Of a stretch of 64,000 nucleotides of DNA, positions 661 through 60,100 are shown in pieces. The stretch comes from an uncultured Gammaproteobacteria bacterium. GTDB lineage: Bacteria; Patescibacteriota; Patescibacteriia; CAZSQN01. Each line of letters starts with the position of its first letter. The first letter of the stretch is position 1. A model generated the notes under the pieces. It saw nothing but the letters and a program-made list of their open reading frames with translations, made no database searches and was not told where the DNA came from. The stretch lies in NCBI GenBank assembly GCA_964609095.1, contig CAZSQN010000001.1, positions 11,901-75,900 on the forward strand. The letters are read 5' to 3'. The position numbers were made by a program, and so were the translations under genes.

Positions 661-719
661 TTAGCGTATAGCGTATAGCGTTTAGAATTATCCTAAACCC
701 TAAACGCTAAACCCTAAAT
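661..719. repeat. heptamer-repeat hairpin (TAGCGTTTAG ... CTAAACGCTAAACCCTAAA), family copy 1, immediately upstream of pnp
   Basis: seen directly: ttagcgtatagcgtatagcgtttag and inverted partner ctaaaccctaaacgctaaaccctaaa; related copies at 13565-13645, 38442-38512 and partial at 28479-28505. Confidence 0.6.
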
Positions 720-4199: not shown

Positions 4200-4560
4200 G
4201 TACAATTGTTCATTCCCAAATAAGAGAACTGCGCCGTAAAGAGTTAAGACGCAATTCCCTCTTCTCTACTAACCTAACATTTTAGGGGTTTCGGCCCCTC
4301 AAAAACAAAAAGAAAAGAAAAACCATTTTCTTCGGGCAAACCTGCATAAATTCCGCATTTTATGCGGAAATTGGTCCCTACCCAAGGATGGTAGAGAAGA
4401 TAAGTTCCTTTGTGGATTTTCATAGGTCTGCGCATGATTGCCGCATACTGGCGTCCCTCGCGGAGAGACACCGGTACGCGGCGGTCACGCAGCGATTGAA
4501 AATCCGAGGCGCGAGATGCCTCTAAGCAACTTTGTTTTTTGAGGCGACAACTCGCGCCTT
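4200..4560 (+). ncRNA. candidate non-coding RNA of about 360 nt, unclassified, in a 620-bp ORF-free region
   Basis: begins just downstream of the consensus promoter; several hairpins (aggggtttcggcccct, ccgcattttatgcgg, ctacccaaggatggtag); ends with stem aggcgcgag...ctcgcgcct followed by tttgtattt; I could not find RNase P, tmRNA or SRP signatures. Confidence 0.3.
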
Positions 4561-5620: not shown

Positions 5621-5735
5621 AAATCACAAAATTTTCAATTTCTAATTTCTAATTTTCAATAAATTTTCATTGAAACAATGAAGCATTGGAAATTGACTGT
5701 AAATTGAGAATTGAAAATTGATAATTATAAATTCT
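5621..5735. repeat. AT-rich palindromic intergenic element (aattttcaatttctaat ... attgagaattgaaaattgataatt)
   Basis: inverted arms seen directly; related copy at 60018-60100 (tcaataaatttttattga core). Confidence 0.4.
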
Positions 5736-11294: not shown

Positions 11295-12026
11295 ATGAGC
11301 ACGAGCGCGCGCCAAGCGGCTTTGGAACTGCTTTCCGAACCATTTGCCACCGTCTATGGCTTCTGCCACGCTTGCGTGATTCAAATACAAAGATTAGAGC
11401 CCAACGAAAGGATTGGATTTCTAATCTGTATTTTGGAAAACTACGGGCTTGTTCCGCTAAAGAAGACGCTGTTTATGACCGAACATCTCTTGTCGGTTGA
11501 AAAACTTGACCAACTGGAGGCCGAACAAAATCAGAATCTGGAGATATTGTACAAAGCAACAGCAACTGTTTTTCCGCCAACAGAAGAATTTGCTAAATAT
11601 TTGCTTGGGGCCATGGATGCGCATAAGACGCCGGAGGAAAAGGCACTCGTTATCAGGCATCTGATTTTGCGCCAGCTTCTGCCTTACGCGCCGGTTCTGC
11701 CTAAGGCCTCCAAATGTCTTGCCGAAACGGAGATGGAAAAAGCTTTTGAGGAGTATCCAAAAGAAGCCGCCGCGATCAAACGGCTCTTTGCCTTTGGCAC
11801 AGAGGAGCACACTTGGTGCGAGGTGGCGGAAATTCTAATGAAGATACTGGCGAAAAAACCAGACGACGCTCAGATATTGCTTTTAGCCCTTTTCCTGACC
11901 GGATTAGCTAAAAAAGTTACCGTTGAAGCGGCCAGAATAGCGCTTGAAGAATTTCTAAAAGACAACGAGGTAATGATTGTTGCGGAAGAAGACGGTTCCA
12001 AGAATCCGCCAAAAAACGGAAATTGA
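11295..12026 (+). CDS. hypothetical protein
   Basis: 243-aa ORF followed by strong terminator; no motif recognised. Confidence 0.5.
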   Translation: MSTSARQAALELLSEPFATVYGFCHACVIQIQRLEPNERIGFLICILENYGLVPLKKTLFMTEHLLSVEKLDQLEAEQNQNLEILYKATATVFPPTEEFAKYLLGAMDAHKTPEEKALVIRHLILRQLLPYAPVLPKASKCLAETEMEKAFEEYPKEAAAIKRLFAFGTEEHTWCEVAEILMKILAKKPDDAQILLLALFLTGLAKKVTVEAARIALEEFLKDNEVMIVAEEDGSKNPPKNGN

Positions 12027-13564: not shown

Positions 13565-13645
13565 AAGCGTTTAGCAGTTAGCGTATAGCGTTTAGTTTTT
13601 ACACTAAACCCTGAACCCTGACCGCTAAACCCCATACCCTAAAAT
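13565..13645. repeat. heptamer-repeat hairpin family copy 2 (gcgtttagcagttagcgtatagcgtttag ... ctaaaccctgaaccctgaccgctaaaccccataccctaaaat), abutting ppa ATG
   Basis: same GCGTTTA / TAAACGC and CCCTAAA heptamers as at 661-719. Confidence 0.6.
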
Positions 13646-27275: not shown

Positions 27276-28489
27276 AGGTGAAAGAAATTTATTTGGATAA
27301 TTCAGCCGCGACTTCTGTGGATCCGCGAGTGCTCTCTGCCATGCTGCCGTATTTTTCCGAAATCTGCGGCAACCCCTCAAGTTTTAATAGCGCCGGCAAG
27401 CTGGCCAAAGACGCTGTTGAAAGAGCGCGCGAAAAAGTGGCCCGGATTTTTAATTCCAAGATTGACGAGGTTATTTTTACGGCCGGCGGCACCGAAGCCA
27501 ACAATTTGGCAATTTTGGGCTATGCCCGCGCCAACAGGGAAAAAGGCAATCATCTGATAACGCAAAAAACTGAGCACCACTCGGTTCTTGAAGCTATGGA
27601 GCATTTGGAAAAGAAAGAAGGGTTTAAGGTCACCTATCTTGATGTTGACGAATATGGCCTGGTTGATTCCAAAAAATTGGAGGCGGCCATTACCAAAGAA
27701 ACAATTTTGGTCTCCATTATGTATGCCAATAACGAAATTGGCACCGTAGAGCCAATCGCGGAGATGGGAAAAATCATCGCGGCTAAGCGCCAGGAGCTGG
27801 GAAGCGCCTTGCGCTTCCACAGCGATGCCTGCCAGGCGGCCGGCAGCTTGGATTTGGATGTAAACAGATTGCATATTGATTTGCTGACCATCAACGGTTC
27901 AAAAATTTATGGGCCTAAAAATGTCGGCGTTTTGTACATCAAAACCGGCGTAAAACTTCAGCCGCTTATCTTTGGCGGGCCGCAGGAACGCGCCTTAAGG
28001 CCCGGCACGGAAAATGTTCCCGGCATAGTCGGCCTTTCTGTTGCTTTAGAGATTGCTCAAAATGAAAAAGAAAAAGAAAACAGCCGCCTTACGGCTATCC
28101 GCGACCGCCTTATAAACGGGATTCTCTCAACTATTCCAAAGTCAGTGTTAAACGGGCATCCCGCCAAACGGCTTCCAAACAACGTTAATATTTCCATTTT
28201 GGACATAGAGGGCGAAGCGCTTGTTTTGTATCTGGACGCCAAGGGCGTTTATGCCTCAACCGGCTCGGCTTGCACCTCCGCCTCCCTTGACCCATCTCAT
28301 GTTATTGTGGCCACCGGCATGCCTTATGAAGCAAGCCACGGCAGTTTGCGCCTGACGCTCGGACGCCAAACAACGGCCGAAGACGCCGAATATGTGATAA
28401 AAATTCTGCCGGAAATAGTAGAGAAATTGCGGGCGATTTCGCCGGTTAATTTAGATATGAAGCACTATAAACGAGTGCTTAGCGGTTAG
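27272..28489 (+). CDS. iscS: cysteine desulfurase
   Basis: PLP-dependent class V aminotransferase; SGSACTS active-site Cys loop; 405 aa. Confidence 0.95.
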   Translation: MKVKEIYLDNSAATSVDPRVLSAMLPYFSEICGNPSSFNSAGKLAKDAVERAREKVARIFNSKIDEVIFTAGGTEANNLAILGYARANREKGNHLITQKTEHHSVLEAMEHLEKKEGFKVTYLDVDEYGLVDSKKLEAAITKETILVSIMYANNEIGTVEPIAEMGKIIAAKRQELGSALRFHSDACQAAGSLDLDVNRLHIDLLTINGSKIYGPKNVGVLYIKTGVKLQPLIFGGPQERALRPGTENVPGIVGLSVALEIAQNEKEKENSRLTAIRDRLINGILSTIPKSVLNGHPAKRLPNNVNISILDIEGEALVLYLDAKGVYASTGSACTSASLDPSHVIVATGMPYEASHGSLRLTLGRQTTAEDAEYVIKILPEIVEKLRAISPVNLDMKHYKRVLSG

Positions 28490-28519
28490 CGTTCAGCGTT
28501 TAGAAATTAATATTTTTTT

Positions 28520-29161: not shown

Positions 29162-29239
29162 TTGGGAATTATGAATTAAAAATTACGCATTATGAATAAT
29201 TTGAATCTTAATTCTTTATTCCTGATTTTTAATTCAAAT

Positions 29240-38441: not shown

Positions 38442-38512
38442 GTTAGGGTTTAGCGTTTAGGGTTTAGGGTTTAGTTTTTCACTAAACGCTATACGCTATA
38501 CGCTGAACGCTT
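38442..38512. repeat. heptamer-repeat hairpin family copy 3: (GGGTTTA/GCGTTTA)x4 - loop - (TAAACGC/TATACGC)x4
   Basis: gttagggtttagcgtttagggtttagggtttagtttttcactaaacgctatacgctatacgctgaacgc read directly; between pilin paralogs 2 and 3. Confidence 0.6.
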
Positions 38513-38876: not shown

Positions 38877-40241
38877 TTATCCTCCCTCCGAAGTTGTTTT
38901 ACAGCAGATGTTAAGTCGTCCGCCCGGGCAATAACCCTGCAAACACTCCCCGCTGTCTATTTTTGACTGAAATTCCGCCTCATTAATCTCGGTGCATTCA
39001 AAGGAGGTTGTTTCCGTGCTTAGATCCTGACATCGGCTGCCCGCTATTTCTCTTGTGATAAGCGTTTGTTGGGCAAAGTTTATGATTGTCGCGGCTCCGA
39101 ATATTATGATAAGTCCGATAACCGCTCCGGTCAATATCTTTCTTCCTTCGTCAACCTGCTCCGCCACGCCGGCGGCTGTAAGCCACTTAAATCCGCCGTA
39201 GATAAACATAAACAGAGCCAGCGAGCCGGAAATGGCCAATATCAGCCGGACAATGTTAATGCCTACCTGTATAAGCTGTGGCAGGCCGCATTTACTAGTT
39301 TCGGTGGCGCCGCGGGTGCAGGCCTCCGGGATAAGACGGGGTAAAAAACTTCTGCCGCCTCCGGCTTCTTCGCTTCCGCCGGCTTGCTCCGGAGGAAGCG
39401 CGGCCCCGCCGCAAATATCAGGGTCGCTGGACACGCTTACAAAATTTCCATCGCCGCATTTGGTCGGGCACGCTTGGTTGCCGTCTTCATCCGGCAGCAG
39501 CGGCTGGGCAATTCCGTCGCGGCATAGGCAGCAGTTGGCGCCGCGGCGCCCGGCCTCTTCTTCCGCGCATTTTTTCGGCCGGCCGGAGCAAACGCCGGAG
39601 AAACATTCCGTATTTTCATTGCAGTTTTCTCCCCCGCTTTTTTTGTTCTCGCAGTTTCCCTGCGGCGCGCAGTATTGGCCAATAAGGCAATCTCTTTCCG
39701 CGGTACATCGGCAGATGCCGCCATCACATCTGCCGGAAGCGCACGTGTCTTCCGGTCTGCAGGCCTCGCCGACTCTTTTAGGCGGCGCGCCGGTCTCGCA
39801 AGCCCCGCCGGAACAACGGAAACCATCCGGGCAATCGCTGTTTAAGACGCATCTTCTGGCGCAGGTGCCTTCTACGCAGCTCCCGCTTTGGCATTGGAGA
39901 TTGCCTTGAGGGCAGGCGCCGCCGTCGCTTACTTTATTAACGCAAACATCATTGCTGCAATATTGGGACGGGTTGCCGCAATGGCTATCGTCTCCGCAAT
40001 CCTCGGCGCAGCTCCCATTATCGCAGGCGCCGCCAAGGCATTCCTGCCTGTTAAAGCAGCTTGAACCATCGGCTTTTTGATTAACGCAGCGGCCGCTGCC
40101 GCAGTATTGAAATGCTTGGCAATCAGTAATTGAGCCGCAATCCTGCGCCAAAGTTTTTTGAGGCAAAAATAAAATAACTCCAATAAAAATGGCAATAAAT
40201 ATGGTAAGCTTATGGCTTATAGCTTGCAGCTTATAGCTCAT
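38877..40241 (-). CDS. large pilin-like protein with an N-terminal cysteine-rich repeat domain, an embedded VirB2/TrbC-like hydrophobic domain and a Cys-rich C-terminal tail
   Basis: signal peptide; four ~45-aa repeats of 8 Cys each (DCxxxxDCxxxQYCxxGRCVNxxxDGxxCxxxxxCxSGxC); then YGGFKWLTAAGVAEQVDEGRKIL ... GLIIIFGAATIINFA as in paralogs 1-3; 454 aa. Confidence 0.65.
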   Translation of the reverse strand: MSYKLQAISHKLTIFIAIFIGVILFLPQKTLAQDCGSITDCQAFQYCGSGRCVNQKADGSSCFNRQECLGGACDNGSCAEDCGDDSHCGNPSQYCSNDVCVNKVSDGGACPQGNLQCQSGSCVEGTCARRCVLNSDCPDGFRCSGGACETGAPPKRVGEACRPEDTCASGRCDGGICRCTAERDCLIGQYCAPQGNCENKKSGGENCNENTECFSGVCSGRPKKCAEEEAGRRGANCCLCRDGIAQPLLPDEDGNQACPTKCGDGNFVSVSSDPDICGGAALPPEQAGGSEEAGGGRSFLPRLIPEACTRGATETSKCGLPQLIQVGINIVRLILAISGSLALFMFIYGGFKWLTAAGVAEQVDEGRKILTGAVIGLIIIFGAATIINFAQQTLITREIAGSRCQDLSTETTSFECTEINEAEFQSKIDSGECLQGYCPGGRLNICCKTTSEGG

Positions 40242-40243
40242 AA

Positions 40244-43785: not shown

Positions 43786-43828
43786 AGCGGGCGAGACCTA
43801 CCTAACTTCCTTGGCGGAGAGGGTGAGA

Positions 43829-43918
43829 TTTGAACTCACGATACCCTTGCGGGTATACCGGTTTTCGAGACCGGCTCTTTCAGCCGCTCAGACACCTCTC
43901 CGCCAAGTTTGTTAGGTT
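43829..43918 (-). tRNA. tRNA-Ser (anticodon CGA), type II with long variable arm, CCA encoded
   Basis: revcomp GGAGAGGTGTCTGAGCGGCTGAAAGAGCCGGTCTCGAAAACCGGTATACCCGCAAGGGTATCGTGAGTTCAAATCTCACCCTCTCCGCCA folds as a canonical cloverleaf. Confidence 0.85.
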
Positions 43919-43934
43919 AAATCCAATTTTTTCT

Positions 43935-44156
43935 TCAGTTGTCGTCTTCCTTGGCTGGATTTGTAAAATAATTCCGTTTTTCTCGCCAATGTTTTGTTTC
44001 TGTGCGCCTCGTAATAAATAAGTACCAAGGCTTATGTGCTTTTGTTGATGTTACCTCGCCGGCATTATGGGCGGTAAATCTAGCCTTTAAATCATCCGTT
44101 ATACCTATATATAAATTCTTTTTGACAATGCTCTGTAATATATAAGTGTAATGCAT
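43935..44156 (-). CDS. GIY-YIG nuclease-domain protein (YhbQ/UPF0213-like)
   Basis: YTYILQSIVKKNLYIGITDDLKARFTAHNAG matches GIY-YIG core; 73 aa from MHYTYIL. Confidence 0.75.
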   Translation of the reverse strand: MHYTYILQSIVKKNLYIGITDDLKARFTAHNAGEVTSTKAHKPWYLFITRRTETKHWREKRNYFTNPAKEDDN

Positions 44157-44198
44157 ACTCTCGTATTTCCGCACCGGAGACAATTACACCAAAGAGTA

Positions 44199-45434
44199 CT
44201 ACTTTTTTGCCTCTCGGTCAATGTTTTGCGCGATTGCCGGAATCGCGAGCATCAGCCAAAACAGCATTGAGAGGTCATTTTTAAAATAGGGGACATCAAC
44301 AAGACCGTGGATGAGCATCACCGCCATTGCTCCGCCCGAGGCCAGAGCGAACGTCCGCAAGCGCTCGTCTTTTGCCATCTTTTTAATCCGTACGAAGAAA
44401 ACGGAGACAAGGGCGCCAAAAGCAAAAAGCCCCAAGAGCCCCAGCTCGCTCCAAAAGTTTAAGAAAATATTATGCGGATAGAGAAAGGTTTCAATTGCCG
44501 TTGCCTTGTGATATGGAAGCATTGTTTTTTGATATCCGGCCAATCCCGCGCCAAAGACCGGCCGGTCTTTTAGCATTTTCCAAGTTTCATTCCAGGTAAT
44601 TTTTCTTACAATTCCGGACCAATCGCGGAGAAGAAGTTTGTCAGTGACCGGTTTTAAGACCGGCGGCTGGGACACCAAAACAAACGCAATCGTAAAAGCG
44701 ATAATAAAGGCCGCTATTTTTTTTGTCTTGTTTTTTTGCGCTCTGATAATTAAAGATGCCATCACAACTGTGATGGCCACCAGTCCGGATTCTGTTTTGG
44801 CCAAAATTATTGCCGTAAGCATTAAAGGGAGAGAGAGAATAACAATTTTTTTCCAAACCTCGCCCATATATTGCTTCATATATATAAAGAAGATTATAAG
44901 CGGGGCGAGAAAGAGTCCCACGGCATTGGGGTAAGGGTATGGCCCGGTTACGCGGCGCTCCAGGAGCCACGGCTGCGGAATACCGGCGCCGGTAAACTTC
45001 TGCGCAATCGCCCAGAGGGAAATAACCAGCGCCGAAACGAGCAGAGCGCGAAGCATCAAGCGCAAATATTTTTTGTTTTTAAGGTTTTGCGAGACGAGAA
45101 AAAAGAAAATTATCGGTTCCACAAAATACGCTTTCCAAATTCCCAGAGCGGAGACCTTGTCAGGAGAAACGATAACCCCGATAGTAGAGGCAAATAAAAA
45201 TAAAACAATAGGAATTTGGAATTTGGAATTTGGAATTTGGAATTTTCTTTTTGCAACGGCAATGGTAAGAAGAGCGATGGACAGAAGTTCAAGAAGCGTG
45301 GTAGGAAGCGGGCCGAGGGAAGTTCGGATCAAGTATAAAGGAAGAAGTGCCGGGAATATGGAAAGAGCCGAGGAGAAGTTTTTCCAAGCAATGACTCCGT
45401 AAGCAGCGGCGATGGCGATTAAAATTATGGTCAT
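44199..45434 (-). CDS. O-antigen ligase / Wzy-like polytopic membrane protein
   Basis: about 10 TM helices with a large periplasmic loop; operon-coupled (4-nt overlap) with the flippase gene; contains the in-frame repeat KFQIPNSKFQIP. Confidence 0.55.
   Translation of the reverse strand: MTIILIAIAAAYGVIAWKNFSSALSIFPALLPLYLIRTSLGPLPTTLLELLSIALLTIAVAKRKFQIPNSKFQIPIVLFLFASTIGVIVSPDKVSALGIWKAYFVEPIIFFFLVSQNLKNKKYLRLMLRALLVSALVISLWAIAQKFTGAGIPQPWLLERRVTGPYPYPNAVGLFLAPLIIFFIYMKQYMGEVWKKIVILSLPLMLTAIILAKTESGLVAITVVMASLIIRAQKNKTKKIAAFIIAFTIAFVLVSQPPVLKPVTDKLLLRDWSGIVRKITWNETWKMLKDRPVFGAGLAGYQKTMLPYHKATAIETFLYPHNIFLNFWSELGLLGLFAFGALVSVFFVRIKKMAKDERLRTFALASGGAMAVMLIHGLVDVPYFKNDLSMLFWLMLAIPAIAQNIDREAKK
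45212..45246. repeat. heptanucleotide tandem repeat (GAATTTG)x4 + GAATTTT inside the O-antigen-ligase-like CDS
   Basis: ggaatttggaatttggaatttggaatttggaatttt read directly; unit length 7 is not a multiple of 3. Confidence 0.8.
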
Positions 45435-46870
45435 GGATTTATGGGCTTCTTAGCGCGGAGCTTTAAAAGTTCAGTTAGGGTATTTGGCGTGACGGCTCCG
45501 GTCGCGAGTAACAGAGCGAAATAGATAAGCGCGGATAGCGTCACGGCCGCAATCGCGTGCAGGTCGCGCATAAAATATCCGGCCGCGCCCATAATAATTG
45601 CGGAAAGTGCCGCGCGCCAGGCGGATATGATGCCAAAGCCGACCCCGGTTTCTTTTTTTACCAGTATTCCGGCAGAGACAGCGACAAAGGCCTCGGAAAA
45701 AAGAGTGATGCCGGCGGCGGCGAAAACTCCGTAGCGCGGAATAAGCAGGGCATAGAGGGCAAGGGAAAGCACGGCGCTTGCGGCAAAGGCCCAGAGGATT
45801 CTTTTTTGTTTTTCTATGGCTACCACCGTGTGCAAAGGCAGCGCTCCTATAAATAGGAAGAAGACGGCCAGGATGAGTACGCGCAAGATACTGCCGGAAG
45901 AGGCAAACTCTTCTCCGGCCAGAATGGACATTACTTTGTCGCCAAGGGCGAGCGTTCCGGCAACCAGGGGCAGAGCCAGAATAACCAGGGCGTAAAAGCT
46001 TTTTTGGTACAGCCGGGCGAATTTTTCCTTGTCTCCGGTTGCCCAGGCGCCGGATAAGAGCGGCAGAATCAGGCCCATAAAGAGCACGGGGAAGGCGGTT
46101 AAGACATCAACTACTCTGTAGGCGGCGCCGTAAAGTCCGACTTCTTCAACCGTGCGCGAAAGCGAAAGAACGAGCACGTCCGCGCGCAGGTAAACGAGGT
46201 TTAAGGCAATGGAAACAGCGACCGGCCAGGAACGGCGCAAAAGCTCCATCCACTCGCGCGTGTCAAAAGAAAATCTGACGGGAGTAAAAGAGTTGGCAAA
46301 GAGGAGCGCCAGAAGCGCATTAAGGACATTGGCGGCCACCAGCGCGATAAAAATTCCTAAAAGCCCGCCGTGAAGATAGGCGGAAATAATCACTCCGAGG
46401 AGAAGAGCGGCGCGGCTGGCAATTTCGGCAATGGCGATTTTGTCCATGCGGAGGTTGGCCTGGAAAAGCGCCGAGAGCATCTGCGTAAAAGCAGTGGCCA
46501 AGAAGGCGAGCGCGGCAATGGCAATGCCGATTTTAATTTCTCCTGAATACGGAAAGAAAAGCGCGACTATGGGCGCGGCGCCGAAAAATAAAAGTCCGGA
46601 GACAAGGCGGAAGCCGAGCGCGGTTCCTAAAATCTTTTTTCTGTCAGTGTTTGGATTTCCAAAAAGCGAGGCGAGGGTGATAGTTAAACCCAAATCAACG
46701 GCAATGCCGAAGAACTGCAAAAATGCCGTGACGGTGGTAAAAGCTCCGAAGCCGGCCGTGCCGATACTGCGGGTAATAAAACCGATAGTAATAAGGCCCA
46801 GAACAATGGACCCGGCTTTGCCAATGGCCTGGACCCCGGTGTTATAAGCGATTTTTCTAGCGACAGACAT
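45431..46870 (-). CDS. Wzx/MOP-superfamily polysaccharide flippase
   Basis: 479 aa, 12-14 TM helices, typical polysaccharide biosynthesis protein N-terminus MSVARKIAYNTGVQAIGKAG. Confidence 0.8.
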   Translation of the reverse strand: MSVARKIAYNTGVQAIGKAGSIVLGLITIGFITRSIGTAGFGAFTTVTAFLQFFGIAVDLGLTITLASLFGNPNTDRKKILGTALGFRLVSGLLFFGAAPIVALFFPYSGEIKIGIAIAALAFLATAFTQMLSALFQANLRMDKIAIAEIASRAALLLGVIISAYLHGGLLGIFIALVAANVLNALLALLFANSFTPVRFSFDTREWMELLRRSWPVAVSIALNLVYLRADVLVLSLSRTVEEVGLYGAAYRVVDVLTAFPVLFMGLILPLLSGAWATGDKEKFARLYQKSFYALVILALPLVAGTLALGDKVMSILAGEEFASSGSILRVLILAVFFLFIGALPLHTVVAIEKQKRILWAFAASAVLSLALYALLIPRYGVFAAAGITLFSEAFVAVSAGILVKKETGVGFGIISAWRAALSAIIMGAAGYFMRDLHAIAAVTLSALIYFALLLATGAVTPNTLTELLKLRAKKPINP

Positions 46871-46876
46871 AAAATT

Positions 46877-46907
46877 AGCTTATAGCTTATAGCTTATAGC
46901 TTATAGC
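46877..46907. repeat. heptanucleotide tandem repeat (TAGCTTA / GCTTATA)x4 starting 7 nt upstream of the flippase start codon
   Basis: tagcttatagcttatagcttatagcttatagc read directly; degenerate copy agcttatggcttatagcttgcagcttatagctcat forms the first codons of the Cys-rich pilin gene (40203-40241). Confidence 0.8.
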
Positions 46908-49042: not shown

Positions 49043-51085
49043 ATGGCACTCCCGCTAAAATCAGAGCAAACTCGGGCCGCAGCCGCCGCGACGCTTGTCG
49101 CGAGCGTGGCTGTGGCTTTTTTGATTGTCATTTCCGCCGCCTTCGCTTTGCGCGTATTAGAGGCGCGCATCAATGCCGGACGGAGCATTTTTTTACAAAA
49201 ACAATTGCTTAAATCAAAATCAGACGCGACTTCTTTTTGGGAGGCGGGTACGGCAAGACAAAGGCCGCGGCTGGGAAACGGTTATCGCCGTTTGGCTCAA
49301 GCCGTCCGCGCTTATATTCTTATTCCCACGGCCTCGGCGCGCGAGGCCGCGCCTGTTTCCAAGAAAAGATACGAGGCGAAATTTTTTATAGAATCGGATA
49401 AGGAAATCACGATGCGTTCGGGCGAAGTCGCCACCTACACGGTCGGTTTTAAAAATATCGGTTCCAAAGAGTGGAGAAATGACGGAAAAAATTATATTTC
49501 CGTTTACGCGGCCAAGCCATACTATCGCAAAAGCCGGTTTTTCTCTGAACATTGGGAAAAAGACATAAAGCCGGCGCGTTTGCGCGACGCGGTTGTTGCT
49601 CCCGGCGCGGTGGGTTATTTTGAAATAACTCTTAAGGCCCCGGAGAAGCCGGGAAATTATATTGAGAGATTTAATTTAGCCGTTGAGAATTCGGCTTGGA
49701 TGCCGGGCGGATATTTTTATGTGCCGGTAAAAGTTGAAGAAAAACCGGCGTATTCGGCCGCGCTTTTGCTAAAGAGTTCTAATGGGCTTGCCCTGCGCCA
49801 GGGCGAGGAGAAGAAAGTGACTGTCGGCTGGAAGAATAACGGCCGGGCCGCCTGGAAGGAGCGGGCGGTAGTGGTAAAAAGTTTGGAAATCGGGAATGAT
49901 GACGCCGCTTCGCCGGTAATTTTTGCCGCCTCCGGCTGGGGTCCGGAAGGACAGGCCGTGAAAGTCGGCGGAGAGCCGGTGGCGCCGGGCAGAGTTGATT
50001 TTATTGATTTTAATCTGCGCGCGCCGTCGCGTACGGGAGAATTTTCCATCAAATTCGCGCTTGTGGTTGACGGCGAGGAAATAGAAGGCGGCGATGTTGA
50101 TTTTACGGGCAATGTCACAGACGAATCGCGTTCTCTGGGGCTGCCGGCCATTGAACCGCTGGGATTTACAACCGAACCGAACATAAGAATAGGATTATGT
50201 TTTATTCCTTATGATGTTTCTGACAAAGGACAGACAGGCATTGACCCTTGCGTTGCGGACAAAAATCAAATTCTGCGCGTTTCTTCCAGCGCGTTGCTTT
50301 CGCTCCAAAATGAAGCGGGAACGGTTGTGGCGCAAAATATCGGCGCGAATGTTTCCATAAACTTTGATCCGGTAAGCAGATTTACGGTCGCTGCCAATGG
50401 AGTAAGCTATTCATTTATGAATGCCGTCAAAGTCGTGCCGAACGACCTTAATGCGGTTCTTGTTTTTGAAAATTGGAAAAATATAATCAGGAGCGGAGAA
50501 AACGATAACAGACAGCGCGGCATTCTTGAATTCCGGTATTTAGACGACAGAAAGCGGCTTTGGGCGATTAACGAGCTTCCTCTGGAGCGCTATGTTAAGG
50601 GCATTGCGGAGATACCGGCAGGTTGGCCGTTAGAAGTACAAAAAGCCCAGGCCATTGCCGCCCGCACTTACGCGGCTTATTACCTTCTGGCCGGAGGCAA
50701 GCACGCGAGTCAGCAGCATATTTTAAACGCCGGAGAAGGCGACCAAGTGTACCACGGAGTTGGCGCCGAGTTGCGCCGTCCTCTGCTTTCCGCAGCTGTT
50801 GATGAAACGGCCGGCATACTGGTTACCTATGGCGGCGGAGTTGTTTCCACTCCTTATTTCGGACAAAGCGACGGACGCACTAAGAGCTGGGCTGAGGTTT
50901 ACGGTTCAACTAACAGGCCGTGGCTGCAGTCGGTGGAAGCGCCGTATGATTTGGGAAAGACATTGCGCGGACACGGCATTGGCATGAGCCAGATGGACGC
51001 ATATGGGATGGCCAAATCCGGAGCGACTTATGAGCAGATTTTGAAGCATTATTATACGGGCATTGAGCTTAAACGAGCGTATTAA
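49043..51085 (+). CDS. SpoIID/LytB-domain protein with N-terminal TM anchor and repeated beta-rich domains
   Basis: C-terminal SpoIID signature (AQAIAARTYAAYYL ... GEGDQVYHGVGAE ... VSTPYFGQSDGRTKSW); start at MALPLKSEQ. Confidence 0.8.
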   Translation: MALPLKSEQTRAAAAATLVASVAVAFLIVISAAFALRVLEARINAGRSIFLQKQLLKSKSDATSFWEAGTARQRPRLGNGYRRLAQAVRAYILIPTASAREAAPVSKKRYEAKFFIESDKEITMRSGEVATYTVGFKNIGSKEWRNDGKNYISVYAAKPYYRKSRFFSEHWEKDIKPARLRDAVVAPGAVGYFEITLKAPEKPGNYIERFNLAVENSAWMPGGYFYVPVKVEEKPAYSAALLLKSSNGLALRQGEEKKVTVGWKNNGRAAWKERAVVVKSLEIGNDDAASPVIFAASGWGPEGQAVKVGGEPVAPGRVDFIDFNLRAPSRTGEFSIKFALVVDGEEIEGGDVDFTGNVTDESRSLGLPAIEPLGFTTEPNIRIGLCFIPYDVSDKGQTGIDPCVADKNQILRVSSSALLSLQNEAGTVVAQNIGANVSINFDPVSRFTVAANGVSYSFMNAVKVVPNDLNAVLVFENWKNIIRSGENDNRQRGILEFRYLDDRKRLWAINELPLERYVKGIAEIPAGWPLEVQKAQAIAARTYAAYYLLAGGKHASQQHILNAGEGDQVYHGVGAELRRPLLSAAVDETAGILVTYGGGVVSTPYFGQSDGRTKSWAEVYGSTNRPWLQSVEAPYDLGKTLRGHGIGMSQMDAYGMAKSGATYEQILKHYYTGIELKRAY

Positions 51086-51200
51086 ATGTCTAATATCTAA
51101 TTCCTAATTTCTAATCAATGACTAATGATTTAATGTCTAAAAAGATTTAGTTATTAGACATTAAAATATTGATTTGACATTAGAAATTAGTCATTGGTTA
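51086..51200. repeat. ~115-bp AT-rich palindromic element (atgtctaat ... taatttctaatcaatgactaatga ... ttagaaattagtcattgg), copy 1
   Basis: direct-orientation partner at 53950-54060 sharing both ends. Confidence 0.5.
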
Positions 51201-53949: not shown

Positions 53950-54060
53950 AATAAATGTCTAATGTCTAATCACTCTAATTTCTAATCAACGACCAATGAC
54001 AAAATATCTAAAAATTTTAATTATTAGATATTAGAAATTAGTCATTAGAAATTAATTCGT
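53950..54060. repeat. ~110-bp AT-rich palindromic element, copy 2 (direct partner of 51086-51200)
   Basis: taaatgtctaatgtctaat ... taatttctaatcaacgaccaatga ... ttagaaattagtcattag. Confidence 0.5.
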
Positions 54061-57026: not shown

Positions 57027-57098
57027 TGCGCGTGCTAGGATTCGAACCTAGAACCAGTCGTGTATAAGACGACGGCTCTACCATTGAGCTACACGCGC
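57027..57098 (-). tRNA. tRNA-Ile (anticodon TAT / UAU)
   Basis: revcomp GCGCGTGTAGCTCAATGGTAGAGCCGTCGTCTTATACACGACTGGTTCTAGGTTCGAATCCTAGCACGCGCA; anticodon stem GTCGT/ACGAC, loop CTTATAC; flanked by 15-nt inverted repeat atgacaacaaatat / atatttgttgtcat. Confidence 0.75.
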
Positions 57099-59309: not shown

Positions 59310-60017
59310 ATGAAAATTGTTTACGAAGACCATGATGTGATTGTGGTAGAAAAACCGGCCGGGTTAATCGTTCATGGCGGGCCGGGAATTAAAGAAAAGA
59401 CGCTGGCGGATGAGCTTTTAATCCTTTATCCTGAAATTAAAGATGTCGGCGAGAGCCCGGAGCGGCCCGGGATTGTGCACCGCTTGGACAAAGAGACATC
59501 GGGGCTGATGCTTATTGCCAAAAATCAGAAATCGTTTGATAATCTAAAAAAGCAATTTGCTGAGCGCGGCATAGAAAAAGAGTACCTCGCCCTGCTCTAT
59601 GGAAAACTGCGCGATGAGGCCGGCCGTATTACATTTAAAATAGGAAGATCGCGAAAAGGCGGACGCATGGCCGCCCGGCCGGAGAGCCAGGAGGGCCGGG
59701 ATGCGGTGACAGAATACGAAGTCATCAAACTATTTGTTAACGCTACTTTGGTTAAAGTAAAAATTTTAACCGGCCGCACGCATCAAGTCCGCGCCCATTT
59801 CCACGCCTTTGGCCATCCGGTTGTCGGCGATCCTCTTTATAAAATCAAAAGGATGAAAATCAGGCACGCGCCGCCGAGATTATTTTTGCACGCGGCCAAG
59901 ATTGGTTTCACGGATCTGGGAGGAAATTATCGGGAATTTGCGTCGCCGCTGCCCAAAGAACTGGAAGATTACCTGGGAAAATTAAAATTTGAAGCTCCCA
60001 GTCCCAAAAAAAGTTAA
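59310..60017 (+). CDS. RluA-family 23S rRNA pseudouridine synthase
   Basis: HRLDKETSGLMLIAKN catalytic Asp motif. Confidence 0.9.
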   Translation: MKIVYEDHDVIVVEKPAGLIVHGGPGIKEKTLADELLILYPEIKDVGESPERPGIVHRLDKETSGLMLIAKNQKSFDNLKKQFAERGIEKEYLALLYGKLRDEAGRITFKIGRSRKGGRMAARPESQEGRDAVTEYEVIKLFVNATLVKVKILTGRTHQVRAHFHAFGHPVVGDPLYKIKRMKIRHAPPRLFLHAAKIGFTDLGGNYREFASPLPKELEDYLGKLKFEAPSPKKS

Positions 60018-60100
60018 TTATCAATTTTTAATTTTCAATAAATTTTTATTGAGAGATGAAAAATTCAATGAAAATTGTTAATTGAAAATTGGAAATTTTA
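60018..60100. repeat. AT-rich palindromic intergenic element related to 5621-5735
   Basis: aattttcaataaatttttattgaga ... gaaaattgttaattgaaaattgg. Confidence 0.4.

Follow-up and report, generated by a model that had tools for sequence, protein, structure and literature searches.

Heptamer tract and host gene

Within the 64,000-nt stretch of DNA analysed here (the window; positions 11,901 to 75,900 of contig CAZSQN010000001.1, from an uncultured bacterium that GTDB places in the Patescibacteriota), a putative O-antigen-ligase gene of the WaaL/Wzy_C type carries a tandem array of a 7-nt unit inside its coding sequence (CDS). Window positions 45211-45245 read as a perfect (GGAATTT)x5, or (AAATTCC)x5 on the coding, reverse strand; Tandem Repeats Finder (TRF) returned period 7, 5.0 copies, 100% matches and a score of 70 for the interval. 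A three-unit probe allowing at most three mismatches had this tract as its single site in the window and matched 0 of 100 dinucleotide shuffles. The first-pass annotation of this DNA had placed four GAATTTG units and a variant fifth at 45212-45246; the tract is real, but that register was one base off and all five units are perfect.

The tract lies inside an open reading frame (ORF) of 411 amino acids (44199-45434, reverse strand), where it begins at codon 64 in phase 0; codons 64-75 translate to KFQIPNSKFQIP in a short K/R-rich loop. Because the ATG of this ORF overlaps the stop of the upstream flippase ORF (ATGA) and the public annotation calls the identical 411-aa frame, the tract is truly intragenic, as had been proposed. 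The ORF matched the Wzy_C profile PF04932 at 68.8 bits (cut-off 31.7; E = 5.9e-19), and the sole significant match of its AlphaFold model (pLDDT 94, pTM 0.92) in the PDB was WaaL, 7TPG (TM-score 0.68-0.69, E = 1.2e-6). Sequence and predicted fold therefore both place the host gene, as a putative member, in the WaaL-type O-antigen-ligase family to which the first reading had assigned it. In the model, the tract encodes the coil joining helices 47-61 and 73-89, and the large conserved extracytoplasmic domain spans residues 255-322; invariant His, Arg and Asp residues are located in this large conserved loop.

A unit length that is not a multiple of 3, inside a CDS, is the frameshift property of simple sequence repeat (SSR) phase-variable loci, and the tract has it. 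As had been predicted, gain or loss of one unit truncates the computed protein: four units give a product of 105 aa and six units one of 93 aa. Across alleles of three, four, six or seven units the product is 86-112 aa, and the frame is open with two, five or eight units. The mRNA at the tract is predicted to be essentially unstructured (-0.3 kcal/mol, z = +1.55), less structured than 95% of shuffles, and no promoter-like or terminator-like consensus sites were found overlapping this tract or the heptamer tract upstream of the flippase gene. About 85 nt downstream of the ligase tract, inspection by eye picked out GGGAATTTGGAAA, which is complementary to it; this segment encodes a conserved GIWK motif, and we judged the complementarity to be coincidental rather than a meaningful pairing.

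Unit turnover and the gene-family hot spot

Six close homologues of the ligase gene (56-80% amino-acid identity), which together with the window gene make seven orthologues, were compared at the DNA level. All seven carry a period-7 array in frame at the same codon, immediately following the K-[KRN]-K at the end of the helix before it. At this loop (loop 1) the window has (AAATTCC)x5; the retrieved loci, numbered with the prefix L, have (AAATTTG AAATTAG)x2 AAATTCC (L002), the same with G for A in units 2 and 4 (L005), AAATTCG (GGATTCG)x3 GGATTCC (L003), CTGGACG CTGAACG CTATACG CTGCCCG CTACG (L006; CTNNACG units), three AAATTCC-type units with extra sequence before them (L007), and an array split by an in-frame 21-nt GC-rich palindrome (L004). 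The 35-nt length is kept in five of the seven (~33 nt in L006), L007 and L004 departing from it through other inserted sequence.

Among the orthologues, third-codon identity at conserved residues was 0.33-0.60, near saturation, yet lag-7 identity inside each tract was 0.69-1.0; since they diverged, each lineage has therefore re-homogenised its own tract. What is kept across the orthologues is the presence of an array, and not its unit sequence or the encoded peptide. The identical A/G change in both units 2 and 4 between L002 and L005 indicates concerted change rather than independent mutation, and thus that mispairing within the tract happens. The first-pass annotation had held that the same in-frame peptide repeat in relatives would speak for a structural repeat rather than a switch; the orthologues answer to that description in frame and site and, for the most part, in length, but not in peptide.

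Other repeats accompany the orthologous loci. A further array lies in frame in ligase loop 2 of L007 (L007:2030-2068; FIIPNSLFLIP), and L007:1-40, upstream of the flippase gene of that locus, holds (CTATAAG)n, the unit of the window's own flippase-upstream array; the corresponding spacer of L003 (L003:2170-2345) is without one, and intergenic arrays therefore come and go between orthologous spacers. In-frame GC-rich palindromes, for example CTGCCTGCCGGTAGGCAAGGT, interrupt the loop-1 array in L004 (525-1778), L007 (1493-2701) and L118 (~4371-4386); the one in L118, TCCGCCAGCTGGCGGA, is missing from L129, a locus of 91.7% identity. The idea that nested mobile GC-rich hairpins gather near arrays was dropped, as 8 were observed against 10.6 expected.

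Retrieval by homology to conserved ligase motifs unrelated to the repeats yielded 127 further Patescibacteria loci, for 134 loci in all, which together hold 213 period-7 arrays compared with at most 77 at any other period. Over the 121 non-redundant loci used for density counts, the ligase gene carried 5.4-5.9 arrays per 10 kb and intergenic DNA 3.5, compared with 0.35 in all other coding sequence, 0.08 in flippase genes (93 genes), 0.14 in other genes with at least six predicted transmembrane (TM) segments (155 genes) and 0.29 in the remaining genes. The ligase gene is thus 40-65 times denser in arrays than flippase or other polytopic membrane genes, a concentration in a surface gene (5.4-5.9 vs 0.08-0.35 per 10 kb elsewhere in CDS) of the kind expected of an SSR phase-variable locus. 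The same flippase and polytopic controls led us to reject the suggestion that any tolerant membrane-protein loop collects arrays. Period 7 is also specific within the ligase genes, with 91 arrays compared with at most 13 at any other period, and arrays are present in 35 of 106 ligase lineages defined at the 70% identity level.

The ligase arrays fall in three short K/R-rich loops (window residues 61-80, 185-205 and 345-368) and at the 5' end of the gene; none was found in the conserved ligase loops or helices. By the positive-inside rule and the helix count from the extracytoplasmic domain, all three array-bearing loops are probably cytoplasmic. Arrays were purer in ligase genes (88%) than in intergenic DNA (82%; p = 3e-5) or in other genes (81.5%; p = 5e-4), and perfect arrays numbered 15 of 66 in ligase genes compared with 4 of 79 in intergenic DNA.

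Genomes with ligase arrays hold 3.3 times more arrays elsewhere (p = 0.005), and array-proneness is therefore a lineage trait. Units are diverse, with 139 canonical units among the 213 arrays and unit sharing about three times commoner within than between genomes, and they are AT-rich (34% GC vs 47% for the host loci); this diversity led us to reject a single binding motif behind the arrays. Copy number peaks at 4-5 units (28-35 nt) with almost no tail. Furthermore, in-frame period-7 arrays occur in other Patescibacteria genes, twice in PolA (L089:14304-16826), twice in TrmD (L018:433-1119), in TsaD (L101:1889-3205), in glutamate dehydrogenase (GDH; L016:16311-17795) and in others; the unit of the PolA arrays of L089, CATACTA, recurs in one ligase array of that genome. 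Local ligase paralogues that might buffer frameshifts were present at 2 of the 121 loci, counted within the loci rather than over whole genomes.

Period-7 arrays in the window

The window itself is rich in such repeats (Table 1). TRF lists about 18 period-7 arrays at 12 places, ten of them intergenic, and a lag-match statistic found period-7 arrays only, 10 of them, where the other periods tested (4-6 and 8-12) and 40 dinucleotide shuffles gave none; this statistic was used instead of an array detector whose harsh mismatch penalty caught only the three purest tracts. At least five heptamer unit families are represented. At seven places two inverted arrays flank a short loop and form predicted long hairpins (fold z -2.2 to -7.8, six at or below -2.95), and the single-arm arrays, including the ligase and flippase-upstream tracts, have essentially no predicted structure. 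An Rfam scan of the window returned four tRNAs only and no family coinciding with the arrays; no promoter-like sites were found to coincide with them.

Table 1. Genes and period-7 arrays of the window, in window coordinates
Feature	Position	Strand	Context and evidence
Two-arm hairpin (TTTAGCG)n loop (CCCTAAA)n	662..718	+	NYN-domain gene/PNPase spacer; ends 4 nt before PNPase ATG; z = -7.8
Two-arm hairpin (AATTTCT)n / (GAAATTG)n	5630..5726	+	Upstream of ComM/Mg-chelatase-like gene; z = -3.7
Two-arm hairpin, arm pair as 662-718	13566..13632	+	Upstream of inorganic pyrophosphatase; z = -6.1
Single-arm (TTAGCGN)n	28479..28503	+	Overlaps cysteine-desulfurase-like stop; 17 nt before NifU start
Two-arm element (GAATTAN)n / (NTAATTC)n	29166..29235	+	Between two NifU-type genes; z = -2.2
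Two-arm hairpin, arm pair and orientation of 662-718 in gene sense	38443..38511	-	Between two type IV secretion system (T4SS)-pilin-like genes; z = -4.4
Imperfect GCTATAA array, unit family of flippase-upstream tract	40207..40242	-	First 12 codons (MSYKLQAISHKL) of 454-aa T4SS-pilin-like ORF 38877-40241
Putative WaaL/Wzy_C-type O-antigen-ligase family gene, 411 aa	44199..45434	-	PF04932 match, structure model
Heptamer tract (AAATTCC)x5	45211..45245	-	Codons 64-75 of WaaL-like gene; TRF, three-unit probe, folding
Wzx-type flippase (Polysacc_synt), without array; matched control family	45431..46870	-	Profile match; stop overlaps ligase start
Single-arm (CTATAAG)x4.6 in flippase sense, (TAGCTTA)x4.6 forward	46876..46907	-	TRF; ends 5 nt before flippase ATG at 46870; outside CDS
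Single-arm (TCTAATN)n	51085..51115	+	Starts at stop of SpoIID-like gene
Two-arm hairpin (AATNTCT)n / (ATTAGAN)n	53954..54054	-	Between RuvB and bPH_2 gene; z = -3.0
Two-arm hairpin (CAATTTT)n / (GAAAATT)n	60016..60097	+	Ends 2 nt before ATG of cytidylate-kinase-like gene; z = -3.5

The genes just downstream of window arrays encode PNPase, a ComM-like ATPase, pyrophosphatase, two NifU-type proteins, a kinase, pilin-like proteins and the flippase; as these are mostly housekeeping genes, the array class is not tied to surface genes, and a surface-gene theme for all arrays was rejected. The heptamer tract that had been reported at the start of the flippase gene exists, but outside the CDS. The further proposal, that it and the ligase tract form a joint switch of a polysaccharide locus, is weakened by a lack of locus specificity, with like arrays preceding PNPase, pyrophosphatase and NifU and lying in frame in PolA, TrmD and TsaD. 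Besides the ligase tract, the imperfect array that opens the 454-aa T4SS-pilin-like ORF is the second translated array of the window.

Three of the hairpins (662-718 and 13566-13632 on the forward strand, 38443-38511 on the reverse) have in common, in the sense of the downstream gene, the arm pair 5'-(UUUAGCG)n loop (CCCUAAA)n-3', which leaves a single C.C mismatch in every heptad. Their orientation relative to that gene is also constant, so that the three resemble copies of a single dispersed element family. Their (CCCTAAA)n/(TTTAGGG)n arm, at 692-718, 13607-13632 and 38443-38474, is here simply one heptamer family; the motif is that of the plant-type telomere repeat, and such arms in a bacterial metagenome-assembled genome could trip telomere or contamination screens.

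Shine-Dalgarno (SD)-like motifs are scarce in the window (GGAG or GAGG within -20 to -4 of the longest-ORF start in 9 of 62 genes); they precede none of the eight array-preceded genes and 9 of the 54 others, a difference that is not significant where motifs are scarce genome-wide. Among the neighbours of the ligase gene, a stand-alone GIY-YIG nuclease-domain ORF (82 aa; 43935-44183, reverse strand) lies directly between it and a tRNA-Ser gene (43812-43901, reverse strand). In bacteria the usual reader of AUA is a CAT tRNA modified with lysidine; the window carries a tRNA-Ile gene with anticodon TAT at 57027-57098 (reverse strand).

Switching, rival explanations and significance

ON/OFF switching was assessed from allele states, relatives and assemblies. 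All of the roughly 83 arrays surveyed in 44 ligase genes keep the frame, so that no OFF alleles were seen, and the sole frameshifted ligase locus (L130) is without an array. The comparison of repeat number among relatives that had been suggested gave no change: across 21.4 kb and seven arrays, no indel separated four independent assemblies of 100% identity, and L118 and L129 have the same unit counts in all three loops. The power of this comparison is limited, no strain-level relative of the window organism spanning the tract. Every relative turned up by the metagenome and genome scans was at 46% identity or less. Truncated OFF products were sought with the N-terminal 75 residues only as query, which gave five word-sharing candidates, none significant. 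With regard to slippage potential, the ligase tract is perfect but has five units, the class as a whole has its maximum at 4-5 units, and matches are below 90% in 38 of the 66 ligase arrays; known heptanucleotide switches often carry far more units. Arrays of the same kind lie in frame in PolA, TrmD, TsaD and GDH, genes in which ON/OFF switching is implausible. Taken together, the switch proposed at first reading fares unevenly: unit re-homogenisation, concentration in one gene family and purity resemble contingency loci, but no OFF state occurs among the arrays surveyed, and a high-frequency switch at the ligase tract is unlikely.

We favour, at about an even chance, a reading in which the tract is a self-renewing heptamer array that serves, in what is probably a cytoplasmic loop of the WaaL-type protein, as a linker free of sequence constraint, its frame held by selection on the ligase, and is not a classical high-frequency switch. 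The tract belongs to a class of short heptanucleotide arrays found across the Patescibacteria, and would have arisen and stayed homogeneous by slipped-strand mispairing or intra-array conversion, either of which may be the renewing process. It occupies one of the three hot-spot loops of WaaL/Wzy_C-type genes, where its in-frame translation would supply a linker of unconstrained sequence between two transmembrane helices, with purifying selection on the full-length ligase fixing its length (35 nt) and frame while concerted evolution turned over the unit sequence in each lineage. One-unit changes, with their products of 93-105 aa, would occasionally have to yield null variants; the comparative data give no sign of these becoming common, which suggests that adaptive switching is absent.

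General observations on prokaryotic repeats accord with parts of this picture. The commonest long SSRs of prokaryotes are heptamers, for which polymerase slippage has been proposed (Mrazek 2007, as cited in PMC4679880 and PMC4692102); inside genes, the units expected to last are those that are multiples of a triplet (Mrazek 2007, summarised in PMC4679880). The ligase hot spot concerns a unit of 7 nt. In another setting, that of Borg elements, genic repeats reportedly have unit lengths divisible by 3. One account describes Borg tandem repeats as perfect, recent and independently arisen, lying between and within genes and making disordered protein regions (PMC9879509). The heptamer arrays are similar in these respects and in adding unconstrained peptide segments; they differ in that changes of their 7-nt units are not frame-neutral and in being short and aimed at one gene family.

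Several observations weigh against the self-renewing linker. An account built on mutation and tolerance does not predict the densities (5.4-5.9 in ligase, 0.08 in flippase, 0.14 in genes with six or more TM segments, 0.29 in the rest), and the 40-65-fold ligase enrichment is not accounted for by it. Nor does it predict that ligase arrays should be purer than intergenic ones (88% vs 82%, p = 3e-5), which is unexpected because frame constraints should hinder slippage-based renewal. Moreover, two independent k = 31 assemblies of the window organism stop inside the perfect ligase and flippase-upstream tracts: their short contigs, from other sequencing runs (L137 from SRR12113424 and L138 from SRR12113385, both in Logan), start inside the flippase-upstream tract and end inside the ligase tract. 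The reference alleles hold no repeated 31-mer, and a de Bruijn simulation assembles straight through them; in simulated runs longer than, or mixed with, the reference, the graph breaks at 27/30 nt (k = 31) or 26/29 nt (k = 30), and the k = 30 break model gives the length of L137 exactly (1688 nt), while the ends of L138 match no unit-number model. These breaks are suggestive but ambiguous, fitting longer or mixed alleles and, equally, identical array k-mers elsewhere in the metagenome. The sequence of L007 likewise starts inside a heptamer tract, and such tracts systematically fragment short-k assemblies.

The most serious alternative, which we still consider unlikely, is a true contingency locus, in which the arrays are retained because their frameshifts turn surface glycosylation off reversibly (as a means, say, of evading glycan-recognising phages or hosts) and switching is so rare that OFF cells are normally a small minority and the consensus is always ON. 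It would draw together the period that is not a multiple of 3, the 40-65-fold enrichment in one surface-glycan family with up to three sites per gene, the highest purity in ligase genes, the within-lineage unit turnover, which implies active slippage, and the k = 31 contigs that break inside both perfect tracts, where a longer or mixed run reproduces the 1688 nt of L137. Intragenic heptanucleotide switches in glycan genes are, furthermore, precedented in neuO and pglE; the first-pass annotation had called heptanucleotide contingency repeats comparatively rare, but they are not without precedent, with neuO, pglE and hmw as cases in point. In neuO of Escherichia coli K1 (prophage CUS-3), an intragenic AAGACTC heptanucleotide makes an O-acetyltransferase phase-variable, its 3-53 units (20 being commonest) varying between and within strains and the gene being OFF in 65.6% of complete genomes (PMC13001214). 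Like neuO, the ligase gene is a surface-polysaccharide gene whose CDS contains a heptamer tract that is translated as a peptide repeat and for which one residue class modulo 3 gives full-length product; unlike neuO, its tract has five units, is of the same length in five of seven orthologues and belongs to a set of about 83 arrays of which none is OFF. The pglE gene of Neisseria, a heptanucleotide phase-variable pilin glycosyltransferase gene, shows all phasotypes among carriage isolates (PMC7157529); the ligase gene resembles it in having a heptanucleotide tract in a glycosylation-related gene, but where switching of pglE is seen directly in isolates, no ON/OFF polymorphism occurs at the ligase arrays.

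Against a contingency locus stand, besides the contrast between 0 of about 83 arrays OFF and the 65.6% of neuO, the constancy of unit number (35 nt in five of the seven orthologues, and no change from one near-identical assembly to another); the 4-5 mostly imperfect units (38 of 66 arrays below 90% matches), from which low slippage rates are predicted; the like arrays in essential genes and before housekeeping genes; and the contig breaks, which array 31-mers shared across the metagenome explain equally well and which in L138 fit no model. A broader form of the idea, that WaaL/Wzy_C genes are a phylum-wide hot spot where selection actively keeps arrays in three loops, probably cytoplasmic, for rare reversible frameshift inactivation of surface glycosylation, we regard as doubtful; it would amount to a contingency system of short arrays in ultra-small episymbionts, working at a frequency so low as to be invisible in consensus assemblies.

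Rather doubtful, too, is a cis-acting RNA or DNA element read in a 7-nt register, which the ligase gene would need inside its CDS and of which the peptide would be a by-product; the reader could be an OB-fold or cold-shock-type protein binding one heptamer per domain, or the active form could be an unstructured mRNA segment or a two-arm hairpin with periodic mismatches. Such an element would suit the preferred size of 4-5 units without a tail, unlike that of a free-running microsatellite, and the occurrence of both single-arm and inverted-arm architectures in intergenic spacers and in ligase loops. The arm pair, mismatch position and orientation common to three window hairpins, the ligase tract being predicted less structured than 95% of shuffles, and the conservation of arrays without that of unit or peptide point the same way. 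Many intergenic arrays, moreover, end 2-25 nt before a start codon, like the TAACTGA repeats of marine Beggiatoaceae, which are also found in some Cyanobacteria and Bacteroidetes and comprise 2-6 units, mostly intergenic and near SD-less starts (MacGregor 2015, PMC4679880). A few TAACTGA repeats lie in frame, at the protein periphery; the genes downstream are without a functional theme, and binding of S1, Csp (cold shock protein) or CsrA has been proposed (PMC4679880). The window arrays are similarly short, mostly intergenic, near starts and without a downstream functional theme; in place of one dominant unit per genome and across phyla, the Patescibacteria arrays have 139 units among 213 arrays, frequent two-arm hairpins and a hot spot in one gene family.

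A second parallel is offered by the heptamers of Xanthomonas (GGGAATC), Nostoc (GGGGAYT) and Calothrix (short tandemly repeated repetitive, STRR), where period 7 is over-represented genome-wide among SSRs and the intergenic repeats lie 0-50 bp from ORFs, occasionally inverted (Rehm 2015, PMC4692102, citing Mrazek 2007); these repeats are G-rich and quadruplex-prone, with one unit per genus and lengths that vary between close relatives (PMC4692102). Over-representation of period 7 relative to other periods and shuffles, and a mainly intergenic location near ORF ends, were found here as well. The arrays described here, by contrast, have AT-rich diverse units with none dominant, count 4-5 copies and are concentrated in a coding gene. 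The lack of a common motif (139 canonical units among 213 arrays) argues against a cis-acting element, as do the absence of an Rfam match and of a promoter-like site over the tract, and the lack of a candidate binding protein and of an evident reason for internal elements in this family alone; for SD replacement the comparison (0 of 8 vs 9 of 54) is not significant, SD motifs being scarce throughout the genome.

A neutral relic, in which three ancient array insertions in the ancestral ligase owe their survival in tolerant loops to phylogenetic inertia and the enrichment is an artefact of comparing one family with many, is highly improbable: all ligase genes are homologous, so that the 83-91 arrays are not independent events, and arrays lie only in the three non-conserved loops and never in conserved segments, but with synonymous sites near saturation an unrenewed 35-nt array would be unrecognisable while many are perfect, units differ between lineages, the flippase family (93 homologues) is essentially without arrays, and 35 of the 106 ligase lineages (70% identity level) carry arrays.

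That heptanucleotide SSRs are common in some bacteria, and that a handful of heptanucleotide switches exist, was already known. In the searchable literature we found no description of abundant heptamer arrays in Patescibacteria or candidate-phyla-radiation bacteria and no report of an in-frame heptamer hot spot at three loops of Wzy_C genes; the abundance of heptamer arrays in candidate-phyla-radiation bacteria and their in-frame concentration at three ligase loops appear to be new. In practical terms, heptamer tracts break short-k assemblies, and some arms mimic plant telomere repeats. If the arrays have a function at the level of the nucleic acid, they would give a lead on the role of heptamer arrays in bacteria generally, and if selection for mutability is the cause, they would for the first time point to contingency loci in bacteria of this uncultivated, host-dependent kind, with a glycan ligase as the key variable surface determinant; if neither holds, they would be a clean natural example of concerted evolution, that of a non-triplet repeat under frame constraint.

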